Notes under the pieces: generated by a model | What the model saw: the letters and a program-made list of their open reading frames with translations, nothing else | Told to the model about the DNA's origin: nothing | The model's database searches: none | Assembly (NCBI GenBank): GCA_005800325.1 | Contig: SYFR01000388.1 | Coordinates: 1 to 42,250 of the forward strand | Source of the DNA: Myxococcales bacterium | GTDB taxonomy: Bacteria; Myxococcota_A; Polyangia; Polyangiales; Polyangiaceae | Direction of reading: 5' to 3' | Length of the DNA stretch: 42,250 nt | Program-made: the position numbers and the translations under genes | Shown here: positions 6,648 through 42,250 of the stretch, one piece after another | Position numbering within the stretch: position 1 is the first letter of the stretch | Layout of the letters: every line of letters starts with the position of its first letter

Positions 6648-9383
6648 TCACCGCGTGCGCGGCGGCCGAAGGAGGGCGATCTCCGGGTCGTCGGGATCGA
6701 GCCGTGAAAACTCGTCGACCACGCGCGCCGCCTCTTCGTGCTGGCCGAGCTCGACGAGCAGGCGGTGAAGCCCGAGCACCGCCGGCCGATGCATCGGCTC
6801 GAGCACCAGCGCGACCCGAAAGCACTGCTCGGCCTCGTGCACGCGGCCGGCCCGAGCGCACGCACGCGCGCCATTCGTCAGGGTCCGGGTCTCCTTCGTC
6901 CCCGGAGACAGCTTGAGGGCTCGCGCAAATGCCGTGACGGCTTCGTCGTTTCGCCCCGCCTCGAAATGCGCCTCGCCCTCGTCGTTGGCGCGATCGATCT
7001 CCGCGGCGTTCGCCATCGCGCGCGCCAGCTCTTCCGCGAGCTTTGCCACGCCCTCGAGGTCGCGGCCCTCATACAAGGCGTGCTCCGAGGCGACGAACCT
7101 CACGAGGCCGAGCCGCCCGTTGTGGTGTTGGTTCCTCATCTCCTCGGCGAGCTTTGCGAAATACGCGGGCCAGCAATTGCCCCACGGGATCTGCGGCGTG
7201 ACGTCGCTCTTGCGCATGAATTCGAGGAGCTTCGGGCGCGAGAGCGCGAGCACGCGGGGCAGGCCATCCTCCGCGATCTCGGCCTCGGGCCGCGTCCGCC
7301 TCTCGTCGCGAATGAGCGCGGTCGTCTCCCGCACGAGCTCGTCGCGGCGCAAGACGCCGACGTTTTCGCCAGTGACGCGGTAGCCGGCGACGAGCGCATC
7401 GAGGACGTGCAGCCGCGCATGGCGGAAAAACCTGAGCCATAGCTCGGTGTCGAACGCGAGCCGATGCGCTGGTTCGACCTTGCCGCCGGCCTGGTCCCAC
7501 AGCCGTCGTCGCCAGTAGGTGCTCTCTTGTTTAATGAAGGGCTGGCCGAAGCCCAGCTCGAGATGCTTCGTGCGCGCGTAGTAGGGGACCTCGACAGCGA
7601 CGCCCGTCAGCATGCCCTCGCTGTCCCACCCCGAGGGCCGCCCGGTGAGCCAATCGAGCTCCGGGTGCTGCTGAAAGGCCCACGCCATCTTCCACAGCGC
7701 CCCCGGGTGGAGCTTGTCGTCCGAGTTGAGCCAGCCCATGACGTCGCCGGTCGAGCGGGCGAAGCCGGCGTTGAGCGCGCTCGCGTGGCCGCCGTCCTCC
7801 GCGCTCTGCCAGTACGAGAGCTCGGTCGCGTGGCGCCGCAGGATCTCGATCGACGCATCCGTGCTGCCGCCGTCCATCACGATGTACTCGAGGTTCGGGT
7901 AGCCCTGCGCGAGCACCGACTGGATGCACTCCTCGAGATAGCGGCCCTGATTGTAGGAGGGCGTGACGATCGTGATGCGCGGGAGCTTGGCCTGGCGCGA
8001 GGTCACGACGCGCGGCGCGCGGGCTCGCAAGGCGGCCATCTCCGGCTCGTCGGGGTCGAAGCGCGCAAACTCCTCGACCACCCGCGCCGCGTCGTCGGGC
8101 CGCCCCGCCCGCGTGTAGAGGGCATGCAGGCAGAGCGCCGCGGACTTGTTCATGGGCGCGAGCTCGAGCGCGCCGCGGGCGTGGCGCTCGGCATCGTCGT
8201 CGTGCCCGAGCGCCGCCACCGCTGCGGCGCAATTTGCGAGCGTCCGCGTGTCGGACTCGTTCGGGCACTTCCCGAGGGCTCTCTCGAAACGCGCCAGAGC
8301 CTCTCGCGCCTGGCCGGCAGCGAGCAGAACGGCACCCTCGTCGTTGAGTCGCGCGCACTCGACCACGCGTGGGAGCACGCCATCACGGGCGGCGCGCGCC
8401 TCCTCCAGGTTCTCGAGCACTTGTCCATCGAAGAGCTCCAGCTCATCCGCGATGAACTGCACGACCTCGTGCTGGCCATCGGCGTAGTTGCCCTTGATGA
8501 GCCCCGTGAGCCCCCAGAAGTAGCGCTCCCAACCGCGGCCCCACGCCGGCGCTCGCTCGAGGCCAAAGTCGCGAGCCAGCGCCACGACTTCGCGGCGAGC
8601 GAGCCGGAGCACACGCGGAAGCGGCGACCGCGGCGCTCGGTCCTCCGCCGCGAGGGCGCGCTCGGCGAGCACGTGCTGGGCCGCGCGCATGCAGAGCTCG
8701 TCGTGGTTGAGCACGGCCAGGTTCGCGCCCGTGATCCGATAACCGCTCAGGAGCGAGTCGAGGATGTGGAGGCGCGCGCGGCGAAAAAAGCGCAGCCACA
8801 GCTCGGTGTCGAACGTCAGCCGCAGCGCGGGGTCGACCTGGCCTCCGGCCCGCTGCCAGAGGGAGCGGCGCCAGAACGTGCTGTCTTGCTGGATGAAGGG
8901 ATTGTCGAAATTGAGCTCGAGGTGCTTGCGGCGCGACAGCTGCGGAAGCTCGGGCGCGATCCAAGCGAGGCGGCCGTCCCCCTCCCAAATCGCGCTGCGG
9001 CCCGTCAGCCACTCGAGCTCAGGGTGTTGCCCGAACATCGCGGCGACCTTCCACAGCGCATAGGGCTGAAGCATGTCGTCGGAGTTGAGCCACGCCATGA
9101 TCTCCCCCGTCCCGCGCGCGAAGCCCGCATTGATGGCGCGCACCTGGCCGCCATCCGGGCAGCTCTGCCAGTACGAGAGGCGCGTCGCGTGCCTTTGGAT
9201 GATGTCGGCAGAGCCATCGGTGCTTCCGCCATCCATCACGATGTACTCGAGGTTCGGGTAGCCCTGCGAGAGCACCGAGAGCATGCACGCCTCGAGGTAC
9301 TCGGCCTGGTGGTACGAGGGCGTGACGATCGTGATCTTCGGCAGCGGCGGGCGCTTCGCGGAGATCGCAAGGGGTGAGGTCAT
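6648..9383 (-). CDS. Double-module family-2 glycosyltransferase: two tandem copies of (GT2 catalytic domain + linker + TPR-like helical region) in one 911-aa polypeptide
   Basis: The two copies are offset by 453 aa. Copy 1 reads KITIVTPSYHQAEYL...YPNLEYIVMDGGSTDGS...WLNSDD. Copy 2 reads RITIVTPSYNQGRYL...YPNLEYIVMDGGSTDAS...WLNSDD. Both C-terminal parts are Ala/Leu/Arg-rich TPR-like helices. Confidence 0.85.
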   Translation of the reverse strand: MTSPLAISAKRPPLPKITIVTPSYHQAEYLEACMLSVLSQGYPNLEYIVMDGGSTDGSADIIQRHATRLSYWQSCPDGGQVRAINAGFARGTGEIMAWLNSDDMLQPYALWKVAAMFGQHPELEWLTGRSAIWEGDGRLAWIAPELPQLSRRKHLELNFDNPFIQQDSTFWRRSLWQRAGGQVDPALRLTFDTELWLRFFRRARLHILDSLLSGYRITGANLAVLNHDELCMRAAQHVLAERALAAEDRAPRSPLPRVLRLARREVVALARDFGLERAPAWGRGWERYFWGLTGLIKGNYADGQHEVVQFIADELELFDGQVLENLEEARAARDGVLPRVVECARLNDEGAVLLAAGQAREALARFERALGKCPNESDTRTLANCAAAVAALGHDDDAERHARGALELAPMNKSAALCLHALYTRAGRPDDAARVVEEFARFDPDEPEMAALRARAPRVVTSRQAKLPRITIVTPSYNQGRYLEECIQSVLAQGYPNLEYIVMDGGSTDASIEILRRHATELSYWQSAEDGGHASALNAGFARSTGDVMGWLNSDDKLHPGALWKMAWAFQQHPELDWLTGRPSGWDSEGMLTGVAVEVPYYARTKHLELGFGQPFIKQESTYWRRRLWDQAGGKVEPAHRLAFDTELWLRFFRHARLHVLDALVAGYRVTGENVGVLRRDELVRETTALIRDERRTRPEAEIAEDGLPRVLALSRPKLLEFMRKSDVTPQIPWGNCWPAYFAKLAEEMRNQHHNGRLGLVRFVASEHALYEGRDLEGVAKLAEELARAMANAAEIDRANDEGEAHFEAGRNDEAVTAFARALKLSPGTKETRTLTNGARACARAGRVHEAEQCFRVALVLEPMHRPAVLGLHRLLVELGQHEEAARVVDEFSRLDPDDPEIALLRPPRTR

Positions 9384-9516: not shown

Positions 9517-10812
9517 TCAGGCTCGACCGTCACCGAGGACGAGGGCGCAGTTGTGCCCGCCGAAGCCGGCCGAGATCTTCAGCGCGTACCGAGCGCGAAG
9601 CGGTCGCGGCGCTCCCACGACGACGTCGATCGGACCGAGCTCGGGATCGAGCGTGTCGACGTTGATCGAGGGGTGCGCGACGCCGTCGCGGAGCGTGCAC
9701 ACTACAGTGATGGCCTCGACCGCGCCCGCGCCGCCGAGCAAGTGGCCGAGCATCGATTTCGTCGCCGACATCGGCACCGACGCGAGCCCGTCGCCGAAGA
9801 GCGCGCGCAGCGCCCGGATCTCCGCGGCGTCGCCCGCTACGGTCGAGGTCGCGTGCGGGTTCACGTAGCCGATGCGCTCGGGGCCGAGCCCGGCACGCTC
9901 GAGCGCCTGCCGGCACGCGAGCAGAATGCCGCGCCCGTCCTCGTGTGGCCGCGTGAGGTGCGCGCCGTCGCTGCTCATGCCGTAGCCGCACACCTCGGCG
10001 AGGATCTCGGCTCCGCGCGCCTCGGCGTGGTCCCGCGCCTCGAGCACGAGCGCCCCGGCGCCCTCGCCCATGACGAAGCCCTGCCGATCCGCGTCGAACG
10101 GACGGCTCGCCTTCGTGGGGTCGCCATCGCGTGAGCGTGCCAGCGCCCGCGCATTGCCGAACCCCGCGACGGTGTTGAGGCGCGTGGCGGCCTCGGCGCT
10201 GCCGACGATCATCAGATCCGCCAGGCCGGCTTCGATCATCAAGGCGCCGGTCGCGATGGCGTGCGTTCCGGTCGCGCAGGCGCTCGCGAGGTTGTAGCTC
10301 GGACCCATGAGCCCGTAGCGCATCGAGACGAGCGCCGTGCCGCTGTTGGGCATCACGCCCGGGATGAAGAACGGCGAGACGGCGCGCGGCCCGCGCTCGC
10401 GGCTCTTTTCGATCTGCTGCTCGAAGATGTCGACGGAGCCCTGCCCGGTCGACATGAGACAACCGAAGCGCGTGCGGTCGACCGGCGGCGCGAGCGCCGT
10501 AGCCGTGGCGCCGGGAACGTCCGCGCGGAAGAGCCCGCCGAACCCCGCCATGCTCATGGCCTCGGTCGCCGCCGCGAGCGTGAGCTGCGTGACGCGGCCG
10601 TAGATCTCGGTCTCTTTGCGCGAGAGGAGCCGCTCGCTCTCGAAGCCCTCGACCCTCGCTGCGACGTCGGAGCGAAGCGCGTCGGTCGGAAACTCGCGGA
10701 TGAACGACACGCCGCTCTCGCCGGCGAGCAGCCGTCGCCACGTGGTCGCGACGTCGAGCCCGAGCGGTGTGACCGCCCCCATGCCAGTGACGACGGCGGC
10801 CCGTCCCTTCAT
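9517..10812 (-). CDS. Beta-ketoacyl-ACP synthase II family (FabF/KasA-like elongating KS)
   Basis: Start MKGRAAVVTGMGAVTPLG. The active-site Cys lies in SACATGTHAI, and the His-His pair lies in NPHATST and KSMLGHLLGGAG. The ATG at 10812 overlaps the stop of the upstream desaturase gene (ATGA). The longer ORF to 11136 is an off-frame extension. Confidence 0.9.
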   Translation of the reverse strand: MKGRAAVVTGMGAVTPLGLDVATTWRRLLAGESGVSFIREFPTDALRSDVAARVEGFESERLLSRKETEIYGRVTQLTLAAATEAMSMAGFGGLFRADVPGATATALAPPVDRTRFGCLMSTGQGSVDIFEQQIEKSRERGPRAVSPFFIPGVMPNSGTALVSMRYGLMGPSYNLASACATGTHAIATGALMIEAGLADLMIVGSAEAATRLNTVAGFGNARALARSRDGDPTKASRPFDADRQGFVMGEGAGALVLEARDHAEARGAEILAEVCGYGMSSDGAHLTRPHEDGRGILLACRQALERAGLGPERIGYVNPHATSTVAGDAAEIRALRALFGDGLASVPMSATKSMLGHLLGGAGAVEAITVVCTLRDGVAHPSINVDTLDPELGPIDVVVGAPRPLRARYALKISAGFGGHNCALVLGDGRA

Positions 10813-11621: not shown

Positions 11622-11728
11622 GGGTCAATCCTCGCTTCGGGGAGCTCGCGCGCCGCTCGTTCGTGCTCGCCGTTCGGCCGAGGCCGCTAGCGTCAGGCGA
11701 GTCGACGTTCAGCCGAGGGGGCTAGGCC

Positions 11729-11971
11729 TCAGACGAGCCGACGCTCGACGCGGCTGCAGAGGTCGCCGACCGTGACGATCTCGACCAGATCTTCGTCCGG
11801 GATCTGGATGCTGAGCTCGGTCTCCATCTCACCGACGATCTGCATCATCGAGAGGGAGTCGACGCCGAGGTCGGTGATGACGCTCGCGCGCGTGACGTCG
11901 TCGAAGCTGCGCTTGTCCACGCGCGCGGCGACGGTCTTGAACATGGGGAGGAGGTCGTGCTTGTCGGTCAT
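11729..11971 (-). CDS. Acyl carrier protein (stand-alone, 80 aa)
   Basis: The phosphopantetheine attachment motif LGVDSLSMMQIV is present, the size is typical for ACP, and a GAGGAA Shine-Dalgarno sequence lies about 6 nt upstream of the ATG. Confidence 0.85.
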   Translation of the reverse strand: MTDKHDLLPMFKTVAARVDKRSFDDVTRASVITDLGVDSLSMMQIVGEMETELSIQIPDEDLVEIVTVGDLCSRVERRLV

Positions 11972-14810: not shown

Positions 14811-14830
14811 AGGTGCCGCGGCCGCCAACG

Positions 14831-14948
14831 CAGGTGCGCTCAAGCGGCCGGCGGCGCGGGGATCGGCGGGAGCGCCCCGTTCGAAGAGCGGCGCGCGGCT
14901 CGCGGCAGGTGCGCTCAATCGGCCGGCGGCGCGGGGATCGGCGGGAGC
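14831..14948. repeat. 43-bp direct repeat (1 mismatch) with a 75-bp period; copy 2 is the 3' end plus stop codon of the lipoprotein gene and copy 1 lies in the downstream intergenic region
   Basis: Copy 1: 14831..14873 caggtgcgctcaaGcggccggcggcgcggggatcggcgggagc. Copy 2: 14906..14948 caggtgcgctcaaTcggccggcggcgcggggatcggcgggagc. Confidence 0.9.
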
Positions 14949-16024
14949 TCCTCGGCCGCGTAGCTGCGCGCGAGGCTGCTGCCGACGCCGGCACCGCTCG
15001 GGCTCGGCCCGAGGTAGACCTGCTCGGCCGTGAAGCTGCCTGAACCGCGGAGGACTCCCTCGTCATCCCGCGTCCACGCGGACTGGAGGTTGATGGCCTT
15101 CACGGTGATCGGCGGGCTCTGTACGACGACGTCGACCGGGAGGTTGCCGAACGAGTAGCCGCCGCCCTCGCTGTCGGTGACGCAGCCACGCACCGTGAAG
15201 CTATAGCCGGTAGGCGGCTCGAAGTTGGCAGAGAAGTCGACGTACCCGTCCGCCCCGCTCGTCTTCTCGGAGGGGGGGACGCACGCGGGCTCGGGATAGG
15301 TTCGGCACGCCTCGGTATCCTTGCAGGAGAGTCCGAGCGTCGAGCAATCGAGCGCGGGGTTGCGATCGCCGTTCGTGAACTGGCCGACGAAGTCTCCGGA
15401 GTCGGGATCGACACGGATGTCGGCGAGGAGCTGGATTTGCGCCGAGACCGGCTTGTCGACGTCGACCAGAAAGAAGTACGTGCCGCGCTCGGGAAAGGTG
15501 GTGGGCTTGACCTGGTCGCCGCAGCTGAAGGCGAAGCCGAACTTGATGATCTGGCGTACCTTCCAGGCGCGGCCGGCGTCGTCGGCGAGGCCCGAGTCTA
15601 CGACGAGCGCGAGCTGCGGGCCCACGGGCATCGTCTTCGACAAGGTGGCCGTGAAGACGCGCCTCGCTTCGTCGAGCTGCCCGAGTCCGCCCTCTTCGGT
15701 TTCGGGGTCCGAGCGGAAGAGCACGTCGAGCTCGGTCGCGGCATCCTCGTCCTGGTCGAACAGCCGGCCCTCGCCGTCGGTCTCGTATACGACGAGCTTG
15801 AACGCGAGCGACTCCGGCTTGATGGGCTCGCTGAAGGTGACCGTGAACGGGGCCGTCGGGTCCGGGAGCTGCCCCTCTACGAGGCCTTCGATCGCGACCG
15901 CCGGCGGCGCGTCGAAGGGGTCGCAGCCGGCGAGGGACAAGGCCGTGGCGAGGATGCAGGCACCGAGCGATGCTCCACGATGGGCGCCCCGCGTCGACGA
16001 GGCAAATGGGTAAGTGAAGATCAT
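14915..16024 (-). CDS. Lipoprotein, function unknown (possible Ig-like N-terminal domain)
   Basis: A signal peptide ends in the lipobox LSLAGC. The segment FTVTFSEPIKPESLAFKLVVYE resembles SbsA-type Ig-like domains (unverified). The C-terminal part contains several Cys. Confidence 0.65.
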   Translation of the reverse strand: MIFTYPFASSTRGAHRGASLGACILATALSLAGCDPFDAPPAVAIEGLVEGQLPDPTAPFTVTFSEPIKPESLAFKLVVYETDGEGRLFDQDEDAATELDVLFRSDPETEEGGLGQLDEARRVFTATLSKTMPVGPQLALVVDSGLADDAGRAWKVRQIIKFGFAFSCGDQVKPTTFPERGTYFFLVDVDKPVSAQIQLLADIRVDPDSGDFVGQFTNGDRNPALDCSTLGLSCKDTEACRTYPEPACVPPSEKTSGADGYVDFSANFEPPTGYSFTVRGCVTDSEGGGYSFGNLPVDVVVQSPPITVKAINLQSAWTRDDEGVLRGSGSFTAEQVYLGPSPSGAGVGSSLARSYAAEELPPIPAPPAD

Positions 16025-35366: not shown

Positions 35367-35563
35367 CGACGAGGCACCACGGTCGCCCCCGATCCGGCGT
35401 GTGCCGCCGGCGCGCTACGAGGGCGTTCGCGGTTTCCCCAACTGCCGGTGCGCGCCGGGGGCCACGAGCGGCTGCGTCATGGCTGCAACGAACGCAGGCC
35501 CCTTCGAGCTAACATGACGGGTCGCCCACCCCGGGTCAGGAATCAGGAGCCAATCGCAGCCCC

Positions 35564-36556
35564 GTGCGCATCACCATCCGCTATCCCCTTGGCGCCGATC
35601 GCATGGTGCTCCGCACCTCCCTCGATTGGGACCGCGACGTGCTCCCAATTCAACAAGGTCCGGAGGCCGCCGTCTTCGACGTCGACTTCGAAGGCATCAT
35701 TCTCACCTTCAAGCCGTGTCTGTTGCGCGGACACGGGTTTCATTGGTCGCGCGGAACCGACTACGTGGTGAGCCAGCACGACCCCGATCCCGAGGTCTGG
35801 CCATTCTTCTTCGCCGAGCAACAAGGCAGGGTGAGCGAGGTGATGCACTTCGAGCGCGACGGCCAGAGGCACGCCGTGCGCGCCTACCTGCCCCCCGGCT
35901 ATGACGAGAACTCCCTCCGCACCTTCCCGGTCTTGTACATGCAGGACGGCCGCAACCTGTTCTTCCCAGAGGAGGCCTTCGGCGGCAACGAGTGGCAAGT
36001 CGACGAGACCATGGATCGGCTCGACCGAATGAACGCCGTGCGCAAGGTGATCGTCGTCGGCATCGCCCCGATCGACCGCATGAAGGACTACACGCTGCCA
36101 GGCTATGCCGCATATGCAGCGTTCGTCACCGGCACCATCAAGCCGGCCATCGACCGCGCCTACCGCACCCGCCGTGCCGCGGCAGACACCGTGGTGATGG
36201 GGTCTTCACTCGGCGGCGTCGTCTCGCTGTTTCTCGCCTGGCAGCATCCCGAGACGTTCGGCGGCGCCGCATGCCTCTCGAGCACCTTCGGCTACCAGGA
36301 CGATCTCTTCCAGCGCATCGCCAGCGAGCCGCGCCGAGCGATCCGCATCTACCTCGACAGCGGCTGGCCGCGCGACAACTTCGACGCCACCAACGCCATG
36401 CGCGATCTGCTGGTCCGCCGCGGCTACCAGCTCGGTGTCGATGTGCTCCAGTTCAGCTTCCCCGACGGCCTCCACTCGGAAGGCTCTTGGGCCGGTCGCG
36501 TCCACGTCCCCTTCCAGTTCTTCTTCGGCCGAGCCTGGGCGGCCTCGCGTAGCTGA
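35564..36556 (+). CDS. Alpha/beta-hydrolase 'putative esterase' family protein (enterochelin-esterase-like architecture)
   Basis: An N-terminal beta-rich domain is followed by YLPPGYDENSLRTFPVLYMQDG and the nucleophile elbow MGSSLGG. The start is GTG at 35564, with an alternative ATG 13 codons downstream. Confidence 0.7.
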   Translation: MRITIRYPLGADRMVLRTSLDWDRDVLPIQQGPEAAVFDVDFEGIILTFKPCLLRGHGFHWSRGTDYVVSQHDPDPEVWPFFFAEQQGRVSEVMHFERDGQRHAVRAYLPPGYDENSLRTFPVLYMQDGRNLFFPEEAFGGNEWQVDETMDRLDRMNAVRKVIVVGIAPIDRMKDYTLPGYAAYAAFVTGTIKPAIDRAYRTRRAAADTVVMGSSLGGVVSLFLAWQHPETFGGAACLSSTFGYQDDLFQRIASEPRRAIRIYLDSGWPRDNFDATNAMRDLLVRRGYQLGVDVLQFSFPDGLHSEGSWAGRVHVPFQFFFGRAWAASRS

Positions 36557-36583
36557 CGCCATTGTGCCCGAGGCGCGCGCGCG

Positions 36584-38026
36584 TCAGGCGAGCAGCTCGG
36601 AGAGGGCGCCCTCTGCCACGCGGAGCGGCCCCTCTTGGCCGAAGTCGTCGAACGGCTCGCACGTCAGGTGCCCGAGCGTGTTCCAGAGGTTCGAGAGCTG
36701 CCGGTGGGCGTCGCCCGCGCCCTCGCCGGGGAACACGACCGTGCGGCCACCCGTCCGCAAGCCGAGCGCCGAGCCCCCGAGCAGCAGCATGGGAAACTCG
36801 CGCGCTTGGCTGTGATGCTGCTCGCCGTTGTCGCCCACATACACGATCGCGGTGTGGTCGAGCATCGTGCCCCCGTTGACGTCCGGGGTCGCGAGGAGCG
36901 TGCGGGCCATGGTCGCGACCTCGGCGACCTGACGACGCGTGACCTCGTGAATCGCATCGCGATACGCCGCGTTCGAGCCCGATCCGTGGTGCAGCGTGTG
37001 CCGATCGACGTCCACGATCCCCTCGTAGTCGACGTTGAAATCGCCGCCCGTGCCGCAGCCGACGACGCACACGTTCGTGAGGCCCGCCACGAGCGAGGCC
37101 GTCGCGAGGCGCACCTGGGCGGCGAAGCGTTCGAGCGCCTGCGAAGAGGCGTACCGCGGATCCTCCGAGGGCCCTGGCGGACGAGCCGCCGCGAGCGTCG
37201 GCGCAAGCTCGAGCATGCGCGCATGCCGCTTCGAGAGCTCGCCGAACGATGCGAGGTACGCCTCGACCTTCGCCCGCTCCGCGCCCGCGGCCGGCAGACG
37301 GGCGAGCGCAGCCTGGGCGTCGGCGGCTCCAAAATCGAGGAGATCTCCGCGACGCTCGAAGGCCAGCGCCGACTCCGCCGAAGCCACCGATCCGAACAAG
37401 AGCTCATACGCGGTCGTCGGATGCAACAGCAGGGGGGCGCTCTGACCCTTGCCGTAGGCGCACGTCCCGAAGTCGAGCGAACGGGCGAGGCTCGAGCCGA
37501 CCCCGAGACGAACCGCATCGAAAGGTGCGGCTTTCCGGACCGAGTCGAGGCTCGCGAGACGGGCGTCGATCGTGGCGCCGCCCGCGACTCCCGCGACGGT
37601 TCGTGCGGAGCTGAGCGCTCCGTGCCCCGCGGAGTGCCCGCCGCCGACGATCTTCGACGAGAGCCCGAACACGACCGCGGCGTGCGACAGGAGCGAGGGG
37701 CCGCCGTCCGCGAGTGCCCCCAACGCGGGCGCCGTCTCGAGCCCTCCCTCCGCGATCAACGTCGAAGCGTGCCCGACGCGGTCGTACCACCAGCGAGCGT
37801 CCCCGATGGGTGCCGACGCGTGCGCGTCGATCGCGGCGCGCGCCGCCGTCGAGAGCATCGTGACGGGCTCGAAGCCGTTGCCTTCGATGACGAAGACGAA
37901 TCGCCGCGGCGTATCTGACTCCGCGCTCGCGATGCGGGACGCGAGCGGCGCCAGGATGGCACCCCCGCAGCTCACTCCGGCGGCGCGCAAGATGTCGCGG
38001 CGCGTGGGCCTCCACCGTGGGTTCAT
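36584..38026 (-). CDS. DUF1552-like protein with a Tat signal
   Basis: MNPRWRPTRRDILRAAGVSCGG is a twin-arginine signal. The protein is 480 aa. The ATG at 38026 overlaps the upstream stop (ATGA). The family call is from memory of the conserved DUF1592/DUF1552 gene pair. Confidence 0.6.
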   Translation of the reverse strand: MNPRWRPTRRDILRAAGVSCGGAILAPLASRIASAESDTPRRFVFVIEGNGFEPVTMLSTAARAAIDAHASAPIGDARWWYDRVGHASTLIAEGGLETAPALGALADGGPSLLSHAAVVFGLSSKIVGGGHSAGHGALSSARTVAGVAGGATIDARLASLDSVRKAAPFDAVRLGVGSSLARSLDFGTCAYGKGQSAPLLLHPTTAYELLFGSVASAESALAFERRGDLLDFGAADAQAALARLPAAGAERAKVEAYLASFGELSKRHARMLELAPTLAAARPPGPSEDPRYASSQALERFAAQVRLATASLVAGLTNVCVVGCGTGGDFNVDYEGIVDVDRHTLHHGSGSNAAYRDAIHEVTRRQVAEVATMARTLLATPDVNGGTMLDHTAIVYVGDNGEQHHSQAREFPMLLLGGSALGLRTGGRTVVFPGEGAGDAHRQLSNLWNTLGHLTCEPFDDFGQEGPLRVAEGALSELLA

Positions 38027-40494
38027 CGGTCCTCCTGGGCGAGCGTCCGGAGCTGAAAGACGTCGCTGGCGGCGAGCGTCTCGACCATGCGAAAGAAAGA
38101 GCCGGTCGCGTCGAGCGACGCTTCCATCGCGGCGAGCGCGCATGCGTCGCCCTCTGTCTCGTTGCGGCCCATGAAGTACCGGAACGCGTGCCGAATGAAG
38201 CACCTCCGCGCGCTCCGCGAGTCGGCCAGCACCTCCGCGAAGTCGAGCGCGCTCGACACGTCGCCCTGCAGGCTCGACTCTGGAGCGAGCGTGATCGTGC
38301 TCGCTCCGCTCGGCGCGACGGGCGTGCCCATGGGGCCGTGATCGAACGCGCGAAGGAACCCAGCGTGGTTGTAGATCTCGAAGGGATAGCCGAGCGGGTT
38401 CATGAGCAGGTGGCACCCCATGCACGTCGCCGAATCGGGGTTCGTCGATGGGTCCTCGACGCTCGTGACCAAGCGCGCGCGAGCCGAGAGCGACGGGTCG
38501 CTCGGCACGAGCTTGGCCTCGACGGAGACCAGCTCGAGCCCCGGAACGGTCTCGCAGAAGAGGCGCTCGCGAATCCATCGACCGCGATGGACCGCGCTGG
38601 CATCGTCCTCGAAATTGCCTCCGTGCGCGGCGAGCCATGCCGGATGCGTGAGGACGCCTCGCCGCTGGTCGTCCGGGAGCTCGACCCAGCGCCCAGCGAG
38701 GCTCTCCTCGACGATCTCGACTCCGTAGACGCGGGCCGTCGTCGCCGTGTTCTTCGCGATCGAGGTGCCACAGAGGCCGTTCGGAGCGCACCCGTCCGGG
38801 GGCTGGCAGTCATCGTCGTTCGCGCACGGCGGCCCCTTCGTGTTGACGACGGTCGACGGAAGTCGCCACTGGCGCGTGGTCATCAGCGTGCGGAAGACGT
38901 CCTCGCCGAGCTGATGGCTCTCGACCACCGCGCGCGCGATGGTGTCGTCGAGCTGCTCCACGAGCGTCGACTCGTGGCCGTAGCGGCCACTCTGAAGGTT
39001 GCTAAACCCTGAGGTCGTGGCGCTCGCGGTATCGGGCGTGTCGTACTCGCTCGTGCCGCCGGGAGTGTCCTTGAAGGAGGAACTCGCGCCCTCGTAGTCG
39101 AGCCATTCCCGGAAGAACTGGAGCATCCCCTCCGCAATCCAGAAGTCACCGCGCGCAGGGTAATTGGCTTCGTTTTCCTCGTGATCGAGATCGGGCCGCG
39201 CCGCATCCTGTCCACCCTGGTAGATGGCAAACAGCTCGCGGATCTTGGACGGCTCGAAGATCGTCCCGTCGTCGGCCGCGGCGCGCAGCGAGCTCATACG
39301 TCCGAGCTCCGCTTCGTAGTCGGGGTTCGTGGTGGAGAGCGCCGATACGCTCGTGGGCACTGGCGTCCCCGTGGGGTGCGAGCCGAGCATGTGGCCGAGC
39401 GCGAGCGCCATTTCGTCGGCGGTCAGACGCCGACGGTCGGCCGCGTCTCCGGCGAGTGGCTCGCCGAGCTCGCCGCGGAAGAGCGCTCCGACCATCAGGA
39501 ACGCCGCCTGCCCCACGTAGTGCAGTGACGGACGGCGCTTCGATGCATCCCCTTTTTCGGCGTCGAGGGTCGCCACCAACAACTCGCGCAGCCGCGTTTG
39601 CTCGTCGACGGTAGGCGTCCGTGCGAGCGTGCCCCGCCGTAAGAGCGCGTCTACGTAGTTGTCGATGCACGCGCTGCGCGCCTCGTCGGTCAACGCGGTG
39701 AGATCGCCGTGAATGCAGTTGAGCTCGGCGTTCTTGTAGACGCCCTTCAGGCGGTGACCGCGCGAATACCCGGCCGCACCCGCCCACGGATCCGCGGCCT
39801 CCCAGCTCGCCGGCGCCTCCGGGAGGGCGAGGAAGTACAGGTCGAGCGTCGTCGGGTCGACCGAGACGTCGCGCGCGTAGGTCGAATACGGGAGGACGTC
39901 CGGCGTCGTGAAGGGGTTGTCACGCGCCGTGGAACCGATCAAGGGATCGTCGACCGACTGAACCACCGCGTGCGTCCACTCGCGTCGTTCGACGCGGCGC
40001 AACCGGGCGGGCGAGGCGTCGACGGTCGGCGTCTCGCAGGCGAACACTCCCTCGGGATCGAGGTGGTTCGGGTCGTACACGTCCGACGGTGGAGGCAGCG
40101 CGTCGCAGGCGAGGCTGGCGCCCTCCGCGATCCACGCGCGGATCGTGTCTACCTCGGGGATCGGCGCCGCCTGGCCGAGCGGCATGAGCGGCCCCGCGGA
40201 GCGATCGCTCATGCGTCGGTAGAGCCAGCTCTCGTCGGGCTTGCCGGCTACGACGTGACCGGCGAGCGCCCCCCCGAGGACGGCGGCGCGATCGAGCACG
40301 AGCGCCGTGCGTGGGTTGTGCGGCAAGTGGCAACCGCCGAGCGCGCAGCGCTGTTCCAGCGTCTGGATGACCTGGCAGGCGAGCGGTGACGTCGAGGCAG
40401 GAGGCTCCGTCGCCGTGCCGGAGTCGTCGCAGTTCGCCAGCGGCACGACCAAGCCAACCAGCGAGACCCCCACGAAGAAGCCACGAACTCGCAT
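38023..40494 (-). CDS. Large lipoprotein of the DUF1592/DUF1588/DUF1585-type (Planctomycete cytochrome-c-like) family
   Basis: Lipobox VVPLANC. A canonical CXXCH (TCMGCH, nt 38410..38424) is followed by LMNPLGYPFEIYNHAGFLR. THPAWLAAHGG...AVHRGRWIRERLFC resembles the DUF1588 block. An N-terminal CALGGCH motif is also present. Confidence 0.6.
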   Translation of the reverse strand: MRVRGFFVGVSLVGLVVPLANCDDSGTATEPPASTSPLACQVIQTLEQRCALGGCHLPHNPRTALVLDRAAVLGGALAGHVVAGKPDESWLYRRMSDRSAGPLMPLGQAAPIPEVDTIRAWIAEGASLACDALPPPSDVYDPNHLDPEGVFACETPTVDASPARLRRVERREWTHAVVQSVDDPLIGSTARDNPFTTPDVLPYSTYARDVSVDPTTLDLYFLALPEAPASWEAADPWAGAAGYSRGHRLKGVYKNAELNCIHGDLTALTDEARSACIDNYVDALLRRGTLARTPTVDEQTRLRELLVATLDAEKGDASKRRPSLHYVGQAAFLMVGALFRGELGEPLAGDAADRRRLTADEMALALGHMLGSHPTGTPVPTSVSALSTTNPDYEAELGRMSSLRAAADDGTIFEPSKIRELFAIYQGGQDAARPDLDHEENEANYPARGDFWIAEGMLQFFREWLDYEGASSSFKDTPGGTSEYDTPDTASATTSGFSNLQSGRYGHESTLVEQLDDTIARAVVESHQLGEDVFRTLMTTRQWRLPSTVVNTKGPPCANDDDCQPPDGCAPNGLCGTSIAKNTATTARVYGVEIVEESLAGRWVELPDDQRRGVLTHPAWLAAHGGNFEDDASAVHRGRWIRERLFCETVPGLELVSVEAKLVPSDPSLSARARLVTSVEDPSTNPDSATCMGCHLLMNPLGYPFEIYNHAGFLRAFDHGPMGTPVAPSGASTITLAPESSLQGDVSSALDFAEVLADSRSARRCFIRHAFRYFMGRNETEGDACALAAMEASLDATGSFFRMVETLAASDVFQLRTLAQEDR

Positions 40495-40545
40495 CGCTCA
40501 TCAGTCTAGACCCATGACGGGCCACAACAACAGCGCAAACCCCCC

Positions 40546-40861
40546 GCATGGCCAGCTCAGCGTATGGCCAGCTCAGCGTATGGCCAGCTCAGCGCACGAC
40601 CAGCTCAGCGCACGACCACCTCAGCGTATGGCCAGCTCAGCGTATGGCCAGCTCAGCGCATGGCCAGCTCAGCGCACGACCAGCTCAGCGCACGACCAGC
40701 TCAGCGTACGACCACCTCAGCGTATGGCCAGCTCAGCGCACGACCAGCTCAGCGTACGACCACCTCAGCGTATGGCCAGCTCAGCGTATGGCCAGCTCAG
40801 CGTATGGCCAGCTCAGCGTATGGCCAGCTCAGCGTATGGCCAGCTCAGCGCACGACCAGCT
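40546..40861. repeat. Tandem array of a 16-bp unit: 19 complete units plus one partial unit
   Basis: There are three unit variants: g[t/c]atggccagctcagc (12 copies), gcacgaccagctcagc (4 copies plus the partial one) and g[c/t]acgaccacctcagc (3 copies). They are contiguous with no spacers. The last units overlap the stop codon of the 40845..41150 gene. Confidence 0.95.
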
Positions 40862-41150
40862 GCGCTTTGCCCTCCGTGCCACCAGTGAGCTGCTTTACCG
40901 AGATCTCGTATTGTCCCGCCTGGACCGAAAACGTGATGGGCGCGGCGGTCTGCGCCTCCCCCGTCGGCAGCTCGCGCAGCACGCGCTCGAGGATCACCTT
41001 CCCGCTCGGCGCGCGTACGCGCACTTGATATGGGGGCACGCCCGTCACGTACGGACGAAACACGAGCCGCACCGTCTTGCCCGGCGCGACGTCGCTCAGC
41101 GACTGGCACAGGATCTCGATCTCACCGTGATTCTCGATCGATGCCGCCAC
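40845..41150 (-). CDS. Small hypothetical protein (101 aa), paralog of the adjacent gene
   Basis: GTG start with AGAGG about 9 nt upstream. It shares RVLRELPTG, F(S/T)VQA and (V/I)KQL with the neighbouring gene. No signal peptide is present, and the alternating pattern suggests a beta-sandwich. Confidence 0.6.
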   Translation of the reverse strand: MAASIENHGEIEILCQSLSDVAPGKTVRLVFRPYVTGVPPYQVRVRAPSGKVILERVLRELPTGEAQTAAPITFSVQAGQYEISVKQLTGGTEGKAQLVVR

Positions 41151-41166
41151 GTCGCACGCCTCTCGG

Positions 41167-41475
41167 TCAAGTCACGATCAGGCGCGCGTTGCCGTCCACG
41201 TCGCCATAGAGTTGCTTGATGTGGACCTGATACTCGCCGCTCGCCTGCACCGTGAAGGCGAGCGGCGGCGCGCTCTGGGGGCTCCCGGTGGGCAGCTCCC
41301 GCAGCACGCGATCGACCACGACCTTGCCGGTCGGGTCCTTCACCTTGATGGTGAACGGCGGCGGCGCATCCTCGAAGCACTTGAAGACGATCTTCGCCTG
41401 CGCACCGACGGCCACCGACGCGCCCGCCTGAAGGATGCACTCGATGGCACCCGCGCTCTCAATCTTGGCTGGCAC
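41167..41475 (-). CDS. Small hypothetical protein (102 aa), paralog of the adjacent gene
   Basis: GTG start with AGAGGAA directly upstream. It is roughly 45% identical by eye to the 40845..41150 product, from which it is separated by 16 nt. Confidence 0.6.
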   Translation of the reverse strand: MPAKIESAGAIECILQAGASVAVGAQAKIVFKCFEDAPPPFTIKVKDPTGKVVVDRVLRELPTGSPQSAPPLAFTVQASGEYQVHIKQLYGDVDGNARLIVT

Positions 41476-41589
41476 GTTCCTCTAGTTCCTCGGCAGGCGC
41501 AGCCCGCCACGACGGAATTGTAGAGGGACCGCGCGAGGATGCCGAATTTGCCGCGAACGAGCGTCGCGCCCGAGGCTCGAACGCACCGC

Positions 41590-42250
41590 TCAGTCGCCCG
41601 TGCTCTGAACGGGTGACCAGCGTAGACGCGGCTTGCGAGCGGCACGCGCCTCATCGAAGCGGCCGAACGGCACGTCGTGAGGCGCCGTGCGCACGAGCTC
41701 CGGATCCCGGCGCGCCTCGGCGGCGATCGACCTCATGGCGCGCACGAACTCGTCGAGCGTTTGCTTGGTCTCGGTCTCGGTGGGCTCGATCATGAGCGAG
41801 CCCTTCACGACGAGCGGGAAGTACACCGTCGGGGAGTGGAAGCCGTAGTCGAGCAGCCGCTTGGCGACGTCGAGCGTCTTGATGCCGGTCTCCTTCTCGA
41901 GCGTCTCGTCGCTGAGCACGACCTCGTGCATGCATGGCTCGGCGCAAGCGATGTCGTACGCGTCCTTGAGCTGCGACCAGAGGTAGCGCGCGTTCAGCAC
42001 CGCGAGCGTGCTTGCCTTCGCGAGCCCCTCGCCGCCGAGCTCGCGAATGTACGTGTACGCGCGGATGAACATCCCGAAATTGCCCTGAAACGCGCGCACG
42101 CGGCCCACGCTCGCCGGTACGTGGTGCTCGAGCCGATAGCGCCCCCCCTGCTCGAGCAAGATGGGCTTCGGCTGAAACGGCGACAGCGCCTTGACGAAGC
42201 ACACGGGCCCTGCGCCCGGCCCGCCGCCGCCATGCGGAGTCGTGAAGGTC
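41590..42250 (-). CDS. gcvPB: Glycine dehydrogenase (decarboxylating) subunit 2, C-terminal part; the 5' end lies outside the window
   Basis: The frame stays open to the window edge (TFTTPHGGGGPGAGPVCFVKALSPF...). Conserved blocks FQGNFGMFIRAYTYIRELG, LDYGFHSPTVYFP and LMIEPTETE are present. Confidence 0.85.
   Translation of the reverse strand, partial: TFTTPHGGGGPGAGPVCFVKALSPFQPKPILLEQGGRYRLEHHVPASVGRVRAFQGNFGMFIRAYTYIRELGGEGLAKASTLAVLNARYLWSQLKDAYDIACAEPCMHEVVLSDETLEKETGIKTLDVAKRLLDYGFHSPTVYFPLVVKGSLMIEPTETETKQTLDEFVRAMRSIAAEARRDPELVRTAPHDVPFGRFDEARAARKPRLRWSPVQSTGD

Follow-up and report, generated by a model that had tools for sequence, protein, structure and literature searches.

A probable minisatellite born from the end of a small gene in an uncultured freshwater Polyangia bacterium

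Direct repeats of short units are known in bacteria as the iterons of plasmid and phage origins, which are 17–22 bp long, usually few and often spaced, and which lie beside a rep gene, DnaA boxes and an AT-rich region. They are also known as tracts that underlie phase variation, such as the TAAA tract upstream of nadA in Neisseria meningitidis; to our knowledge, repeat-based phase variation has not been described in myxobacteria. A further class, the mycobacterial interspersed repetitive units, or MIRUs, was reportedly described by Supply et al. in 1997. These units measure 40–100 bp, form a dispersed family of ~40–50 loci and contain small open reading frames (ORFs). According to two reports, the MIRU variable-number tandem repeats (VNTRs) of Mycobacterium tuberculosis are arranged head to tail in intercistronic positions and overlap a flanking stop codon (PMC3184786; PMC3635867), and one of the two also names the repetitive extragenic palindromes (REPs) and bacterial interspersed mosaic elements (BIMEs) of enterobacteria as intercistronic elements (PMC3184786). 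In Haemophilus influenzae, the hmw1A and hmw2A genes carry an (ATCTTTC)n tract; expression of hmw1A is inversely proportional to the number of 7-bp repeats, and the tract acts through a long hairpin in the 5′ untranslated region that is processed by RNase III (PMC12721329, PMC8262952). Here, we describe a tandem array of 16-bp units at positions 40546–40861, on the minus strand, of contig SYFR01000388.1 (Myxococcales bacterium, GenBank assembly GCA_005800325.1). The whole stretch of DNA that we analysed, 42,250 nucleotides, is referred to below as the window.

The closest known kind of element is the bacterial VNTR, or minisatellite. Like the MIRU-VNTR loci, the array lies between same-strand genes, overlaps a stop codon, is missing at the homologous site in relatives and has a variable copy number; unlike them, it has a 16-bp unit that is untranslatable on the gene strand, was found at one locus and derives from a local gene end. 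It resembles the hmw and nadA tracts in being a long, length-variable tract just upstream of a gene for a surface protein or lipoprotein and outside the −35/−10 spacer, but those tracts have units of 4–7 bp, whereas the array has a 16-bp unit for which no stable hairpin is predicted. With iterons it shares direct repeats of a similar unit length, but there is no rep gene, DnaA box or AT-rich region at the array. Like REP and BIME elements, it follows a stop codon inside a transcription unit; unlike these dispersed palindromes with stable stem-loops, it was found at a single locus, and its predicted fold does not rise above chance.

Tandem Repeats Finder (TRF) reported one array at 40548–40861, with a period of 16, 19.6 copies, 90% matches, 0% indels and a score of 446, by far the strongest repeat in the window. 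A search with a degenerate unit, GCTGAGCTGGYCRTRC, gave 20 contiguous matches between 40546 and 40865; in dinucleotide-preserving shuffles the mean was 0.4 matches, and 0 of 100 shuffles reached 20. When the units are tabulated in the register of the preceding gene, the array consists of 19 complete units, each ending in TGA, and an 11-nt truncated twentieth unit. The start-to-start spacing is exactly 16, with no spacers between units. Hence, the array differs from a CRISPR, in which repeats are split by unique spacers, and it has the spacer-free, head-to-tail units of ~10–100 bp that define a minisatellite. In the same register there are three unit variants, B (GCTGGTCGTGCGCTGA), A (GCTGGCCATRCGCTGA) and C (GGTGGTCGTRCGCTGA), which are graded: where B reads TCGTGC, Ac reads CCATGC and At reads CCATAC, and C is B with a C-to-G change at position 2. 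Short palindromes (TGGCCA, AGCT and GCTNAGC) can be read inside the units.

Most of what an initial annotation of this DNA had said of the array itself agrees with these data. The ~20 contiguous 16-bp units are those detected by TRF and by the pattern search, and the unit order it gave, A A A B C A A A B B C A B C A A A A A B(partial), was identical on rereading. Within this order a larger pattern, A..A B(B) C, can be seen, of the type that slippage and unequal exchange should produce. Every minus-strand unit carries TGA, precluding translational read-through as that annotation had stated: TGA occurs in all three frames, and each frame is closed every 48 nt. The plus strand has no stop in any frame and translates into a 16-aa periodic peptide. 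Three overlapping plus-strand ORFs (40307–40888, 40548–41219 and 40564–41028), previously judged to be spurious, are indeed so, since all plus-strand frames of the array are open.

A pattern search found no other copy of the unit in the window. An exact scan for two adjacent units (GCTGAGSTGGYCRTRCGCTGAGSTGG) gave 0 matches in 185,579 GTDB species-representative genomes and 0 matches in JGI metagenome contigs. In the window and these collections, the unit shows no sign of belonging to a dispersed repeat family.

The array arose from the end of the gene that precedes it. This gene, small2, is a 101-aa ORF at 40845–41150 on the minus strand, defined from the ORF list, the sequence, homologues and Pfam. 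It ends CAG CTG GTC GTG CGC TGA (QLVVR*), and its last 16 nt, including the stop codon, are unit 1 of the array, a B unit; the stop codon of small2 (40847–40845) is the TGA of the first full unit. Thus, what the initial annotation took for a partial B unit (40850–40860) in an intergenic array is formed by the final codons of small2, so that the array is not wholly intergenic; at its other end, it does lie just upstream of a DUF1588/DUF1552 operon. The motif at the gene end, GTGCGCTGAGC, is shared with the small2 orthologue (77% identical at the amino acid level) of the closest relative, the Myxococcales metagenome-assembled genome (MAG) Baikal-deep-G134 (locus L006, SHZB01000031.1), which lacks the unit family of the array. 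The presence of the motif in an orthologue free of the array indicates that the array was seeded from the gene end, and not the reverse.

For the mutational mechanism by which the array grew, we infer the following course from the sequence. A 5-nt microhomology (GCTGG...GCTGG, 16 nt apart) flanks the founder unit, and the last 16 bp of small2, with the stop codon, would have been duplicated between these flanks by slipped-strand mispairing. Such a duplication would be invisible to selection, as neither the C-terminus nor the stop codon is altered in the first copy. From B, one line of divergence would then have led through Ac to At and another to C, and multi-unit blocks of the form A..A B(B) C would have been re-amplified or deleted by unequal recombination and slippage.

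In Pfam, small2 has only a weak, sub-threshold match to MG2 (Ig-like); we found six homologues with a conserved C-terminal region. Comparison of homologues and synteny identified small1 (41167–41475, minus strand) as a 102-aa tandem paralogue with 45% identity to small2, and upstream of small1, on the same strand, lies gcvPB, represented by its C-terminal domain (Pfam). The order gcvPB, small1, small2 is conserved in relatives. Tandem paralogues of this type, of ~101 aa, follow gcvPB across Polyangia (L006, L008 and 20+ other loci), with the invariant motifs PxGK..RV.R.LPTG and Q..P..F.

We did not find the array of the window at any other homologous locus: at the orthologous site, the relative with the 77% identical small2 has an unrelated array, and more distant relatives have no repeats or other repeats. 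The array of Baikal-deep-G134 at this site (L006 5327–5407; 16 bp × 5.1, GCGCGAGTYGCATCAA) begins 21 nt after the small2 stop codon, and the stop codon of a convergent gene follows 22 nt farther on. It thus lies between convergent gene ends, where no promoter is needed. We considered homology between its unit and that of the window, and rejected it because the best rotation agrees at 6–7 of 16 positions, below the shuffle median of 8. Another array in L006 (1816–1908; 17 bp × 5.5, AGCGGTGCATCCAGTGA) has the same architecture as that of the window, with an unrelated unit: its first unit is the last 17 nt, including TGA, of a 114-aa ORF, and the array extends as far as the start codon (ATG) of the following gene on that strand. 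With a 15-bp × 6.5 array in a divergent intergenic region (8672–8769), L006 has three arrays of 15–17 bp within 10 kb. The 16-bp and 17-bp arrays of Baikal-deep-G134 belong to the same clade and size class as the array of the window, the former being orthologously placed and the latter built alike from a gene end; unlike it, they have unrelated units and 5 rather than ~20 copies, and the orthologous one lies between convergent genes.

The same kind of event recurs in the clade, and in the window itself. The first copy of a 35-bp × 2.2 repeat at 11667–11743 (minus strand) opens with the two final codons of an acyl-carrier-protein gene (80 aa, PP-binding) and their TGA, and a 75-bp × 1.9 duplication at 14830–14972 (minus strand) spans the end of a gene with a weak Big_5 match, taking in its final ~36 nt, its TGA and ~30 nt of its 3′ flank. 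After small2 homologues of other relatives, we found repeats with mutually unrelated units: 33 bp × 2.3 including the stop codon (L026 5294–5370) and, directly after the stop codon, 25 bp × 3 (L032 5336–5409), 22 bp × 2.2 (L020 5310–5358) and 7-bp tracts that form an inverted pair (L031 1272–1404). A census of 24 loci from related Polyangia, 193 kb in all, detected tandem repeats in 25 of 167 gene 3′ flanks. Tandem repeats in 3′ flanks are common in the clade, and the array of the window is unusual only in copy number. The initial annotation had regarded such an arrangement as unexpected in this lineage, a view that is hard to reconcile with the frequency of repeat-bearing flanks and with three arrays of 15–17 bp in 10 kb of the nearest relative. 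A literature search for described tandem-repeat elements in Myxococcales returned nothing relevant. A longer contig of the same organism that covers this region, L001, has an 18-bp × 7 (36-bp × 3.6) array at 1592–1719, ~4.4 kb past the right end of the window; it lies at the start of a called 236-aa ORF, possibly as a coding repeat.

We found the small2 protein on 8 public contigs, which allowed us to assess whether the array is correctly assembled. L001, a MEGAHIT k141 contig of 61 kb, is identical to the window over 7.4 kb. L003, an independent NCBI MAG contig (GCA_005778345.1), has the same array length with an At-to-Ac single-nucleotide polymorphism in unit 14, and differs from the window at one further position in 4 kb. 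The array is cut short on the third contig, L002, which ends after its first 190 nt and agrees with the window up to there. The Logan k=31 contigs of three freshwater-metagenome runs (X1–X3) break at both edges of the array, as expected; such breaks might also be seen if an assembler had inflated or invented a short repeat, a concern already voiced in the initial annotation. However, the three independent contigs agree with one another, and internal junction contigs and a raised A–A k-mer depth are present in the contig sets of the raw runs. Moreover, the longest exact internal repeat of the array is 71 nt, and hence assembly at k=141 can resolve it. We conclude that the array is real; that it is an artefact of assembly is scarcely credible.

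We then asked whether unit number differs between samples, comparing the expected multiplicity of each array 31-mer with contig depth and graph topology in runs X1–X3. The assembled allele has 19.7 units. In run X2 (flank depth 15.6), we found no contig containing B or C units at an identity of at least 90%. The right-flank contig of this run extends to 40821, those of X1 and X3 stopping at 40832, which requires that 'At At B' occur only once there. The A–A cycle of 16 k-mers is intact in X2, with a 31-nt node of depth 100 and a 45-nt contig of depth 77, and the A–A depth, at 4.9–6.4 times that of the flank, corresponds to ~6 At units. These data indicate an allele of ~7.7 units that consists of A units only. 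In run X1 (flank depth 10.5), an unbranched 86-nt contig aligns perfectly to 40660–40738 and to 40738–40793; it reads Ac-B-B-Ct-At-At where the window has B-B-Ct-At-B, and corresponds to a 48-bp deletion of 3 units between two 59-nt internal repeats. The A–A depths of X1 are 3.9, 3.0 and 2.0 times that of the flank, and the run indicates an allele of ~14–15 units. A mixture in which half the population has a long array and half a short array of A units alone does not fit the A–A k-mer depths of X1, for which a single allele of ~14–15 units is the better fit. Run X3 (~4x depth) yielded a non-colinear contig, At-B-Ct-At-B, at a depth too low to interpret.

Samples thus differ structurally. That unit number varies had been proposed in the initial annotation, and the k-mer graphs and depths across X1–X3 agree with it (~7.7, ~14–15 and 19.7 units). 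The evidence that the array behaves as a VNTR in nature is indirect but coherent, and alleles of ~8 to 20 units would coexist in the lake population. A search of JGI metagenomes with small2 returned only relatives of at most 54% identity, and no further alleles. One other Logan contig of run X1, with a depth of 142 (flank ~10), joins 41094 to 41305 and skips 210 nt. It contains 5 extra letters and matches over only 25 nt on its shorter side; rather than an allele in which small1 and small2 are fused, it probably stems from some abundant but unrelated organism and matches by chance.

Unit-level recombination evidently occurs, and all units share the register of the gene end, each encoding L/V-x-x-R-stop. 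Both observations would be in keeping with a C-terminal cassette switch, in which unit 1 recombines with later units and the end of small2 is swapped among LVVR, LAIR, LAMR and VVVR. Yet these alternatives would exchange hydrophobic residues conservatively, at a C-terminus that is itself poorly conserved, the B-type gene end is kept in all assemblies and in the three runs, and small2 has, as read from its sequence, no signal peptide or other sign of a surface or antigenic role. We regard such a switch as very remote.

The free variation of unit number and composition between samples also bears on the idea that the array is bound by a protein, as iterons or operators are, through cooperative recognition of the 16-bp unit, for example of its TGGCCA palindrome. 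The regular 16-bp spacing of a palindrome-containing unit is the only support for this idea. An iteron-like arrangement had been suggested initially, but we found no replication, partition, initiator, integrase, transposase or other mobile-element gene in the window, and no AT-rich region that might serve for unwinding. The GC content is 62–74% throughout, every gene called in the window is of a chromosomal housekeeping or envelope type, and the genes include those for an EAL response regulator, lipid synthesis, pilMNOPQ, Hsp33, DUF4178, spermidine synthase and an amine oxidase; the window is ordinary chromosome of an uncultured freshwater bacterium of the Polyangia (Myxococcota). In addition, neither the rest of the window nor the public collections that we scanned contain the unit, and the units are contiguous, not spaced. 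Hence, we consider a protein-binding array highly improbable.

A role at the level of RNA was suggested by position: the beginning of the array coincides exactly with the stop codon of small2, the final gene of the gcvPB-small1-small2 operon, and in all relatives the operon ends there, facing a convergent gene. The array could then be a 3′ element of this transcript, a terminator, insulator or exonuclease barrier comparable to REP and BIME elements, that separates the old operon from an inserted one. The repeats in the small2 3′ flank of several relatives, and the short palindromes within the units, are consistent with such a role. However, the RNA fold of the array is not better than that of shuffled controls, and is slightly less stable on both strands (z = +1.79 sense, +1.88 antisense). 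A consensus scan of the array and of the gap that follows it found no hairpin-plus-U-tract, and Rfam found nothing in the array, its sole match being a chance one (E = 0.95) outside it. Furthermore, the repeat units of the relatives are unrelated in sequence and in length. Taken with its supporting points, this makes a dedicated 3′ element quite unlikely.

On its other side, the array borders a ~5-kb block (35367–40545) that is absent from the Baikal-deep-G134 locus. The block lies between the stop codons of small2 and of the amine-oxidase gene, with the array as its small2-side edge. Synteny with Baikal-deep-G134 (L006/L015) is otherwise complete, with gcvPB, small1 and small2 on one side, and amine oxidase, spermidine synthase, DUF4178 and Hsp33 on the other. 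In more distant relatives, too, small2 is directly followed by a convergent gene, indicating that the block is an insertion. We found no direct or inverted repeats flanking the block beyond chance-level 14–26-mers, and therefore rejected the idea that such repeats mark it as a mobile element. Its three genes are a putative esterase gene (35564–36556, plus strand; Pfam and synteny comparison) and, on the minus strand, genes encoding an 823-aa protein (38023–40494; Pfam and N-terminal comparison with homologues) and a 480-aa protein (36584–38026; Pfam and the genes called in L001), the start of the latter overlapping the stop of the former by 4 nt. The 823-aa protein, which the initial annotation had called DUF1592-like, matches DUF1588 (PSCyt3) and DUF1585 (PSD2) in Pfam; its partner, DUF1552-like in that annotation, does match DUF1552 (HXXSHH). 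The ATG at 40494 gives the DUF1588 protein a predicted lipoprotein-type signal, MRVRGFFVGVSLVGLVVPLAN|C, as in homologues. Public gene calls start this gene at a GTG (816 aa; window 40473–40494), and the 823-aa start provides a positively charged n-region and a ~21-aa lipoprotein signal like those of the homologues.

The array is separated from this ATG by a unique gap (GGGGGGTTTGCGCTGTTGTTGTGGCCCGTCATGGGTCTAGACTGATGAGCG; 40495–40545, minus strand) of 51 nt, and not 52 as counted initially, which we examined by its sequence, by a promoter scan and by comparison with homologous 5′ regions. It contains no Shine-Dalgarno sequence, and a consensus scan found no sigma-70-like or terminator-like sequence in the gap or in the array. 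By eye, the gap has a weak TTGTTG-16-TAGACT-8-ATG, which, if real, would imply a leaderless mRNA. The only sigma-70-like match in 40300–41700 is TCGGCA-17-TACAAT (41517–41545, minus strand), a consensus match upstream of small1 from which transcripts might read through the array. Two further promoter readings made by eye were rejected as too weak: a sigma-54 reading (TGGC..N..GC), whose spacing is wrong by 1–5 nt, and TGGCCA-N16-TACGCT, which agrees at 7/12 positions. The closest DUF1588 operons (63–68% identity; L038–L040) head their own transcription units, and, no more than ~50 nt from the start, have a conserved TTGACG-N18-GACGCT and a GGAGG ribosome-binding site; the former motif is missing from the gap of the window. 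Transcription of the DUF1588/DUF1552 operon would probably depend either on a promoter of its own close to the start, within the 51-nt gap, or on read-through from upstream. One of the homologous loci, L039 (JAIBCE010000066.1, a Sandaracinaceae MAG), has a 155-bp × 6.2 array (9520–10484; 93% matches, TRF score 1699) downstream of its DUF1588/DUF1552 operon that reaches the end of the fetched locus.

This arrangement raises the question of whether gain and loss of units in leader, spacer or promoter-upstream DNA might tune or switch expression of the DUF1588/DUF1552 operon, making the array a contingency locus. It ends 51 nt from the start of a same-strand operon that encodes a predicted lipoprotein, its unit number appears to differ among samples, and the gap has no recognisable promoter or Shine-Dalgarno sequence, so that upstream sequence may matter. 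The initial annotation had envisaged an effect on promoter spacing. However, the 316-bp array is wholly upstream of the gap, and the promoter-like motif of the homologues is within ~50 nt of the start; hence, the array cannot lie between −35 and −10. Nor is it predicted to form the stable hairpin on which the hmw system depends (z = +1.8), and its sense RNA, with 37% G and 28% C, is rich in G, which sets it apart from a typical Rho loading site and makes it a poor Rho substrate. In relatives, the arrays lie between convergent genes or at other gene ends, with no consistent regulated gene, and we found no repeats upstream of the homologous DUF1588 operons L038–L040. We therefore consider control of the operon by unit number unlikely. 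It is likewise improbable that the array is a contingency locus of a free-living freshwater myxobacterium and that stop-anchored 15–17-bp arrays are a clade-wide source of heritable expression variation in Polyangia.

We favour, as the likely explanation, that the array is a hypermutable minisatellite, or VNTR, without a dedicated function, born from the end of small2. In its current state it would be an untranslatable spacer between small2 and the recently inserted DUF1588/DUF1552 operon, and its unit number would at most alter the length of that spacer. Several points weigh against this explanation. We infer neutrality from missing signals, and none of the public RNA-seq runs contains the array sequence. 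The array sits directly upstream of an operon that has no recognisable promoter or ribosome-binding site. Its copy number is ~20, versus 2–6.5 in the other arrays of the clade. Repeats are found in 6 of 20 3′ flanks of small2 homologues versus 19 of 147 flanks of other genes (~13%; Fisher p = 0.086), or 6 of 20 versus 15 of 143 (p = 0.026) once convergent neighbours sharing that repeat are left out; these counts are no more than suggestive, and could hint at a locus-specific hot spot after small2. Finally, the allele sizes given above are estimates from k=31 contig topology and depth, not from spanning reads.

The stop-codon-anchored birth of the array, the very different alleles within one lake and the frequency of such repeats across the clade are modest points of interest. 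In practical terms, the array is a warning for annotation, as it yields three spurious plus-strand ORFs and breaks short-read assemblies, and it could serve as a strain-typing marker for an uncultured freshwater lineage of Polyangia. If unit number controlled the DUF1588/DUF1552 operon, the array would matter more, since this gene pair is widespread. As a minisatellite, it provides a natural example of how such elements are born in bacteria: a duplication that includes the stop codon escapes selection, and can then expand, diversify and contract.

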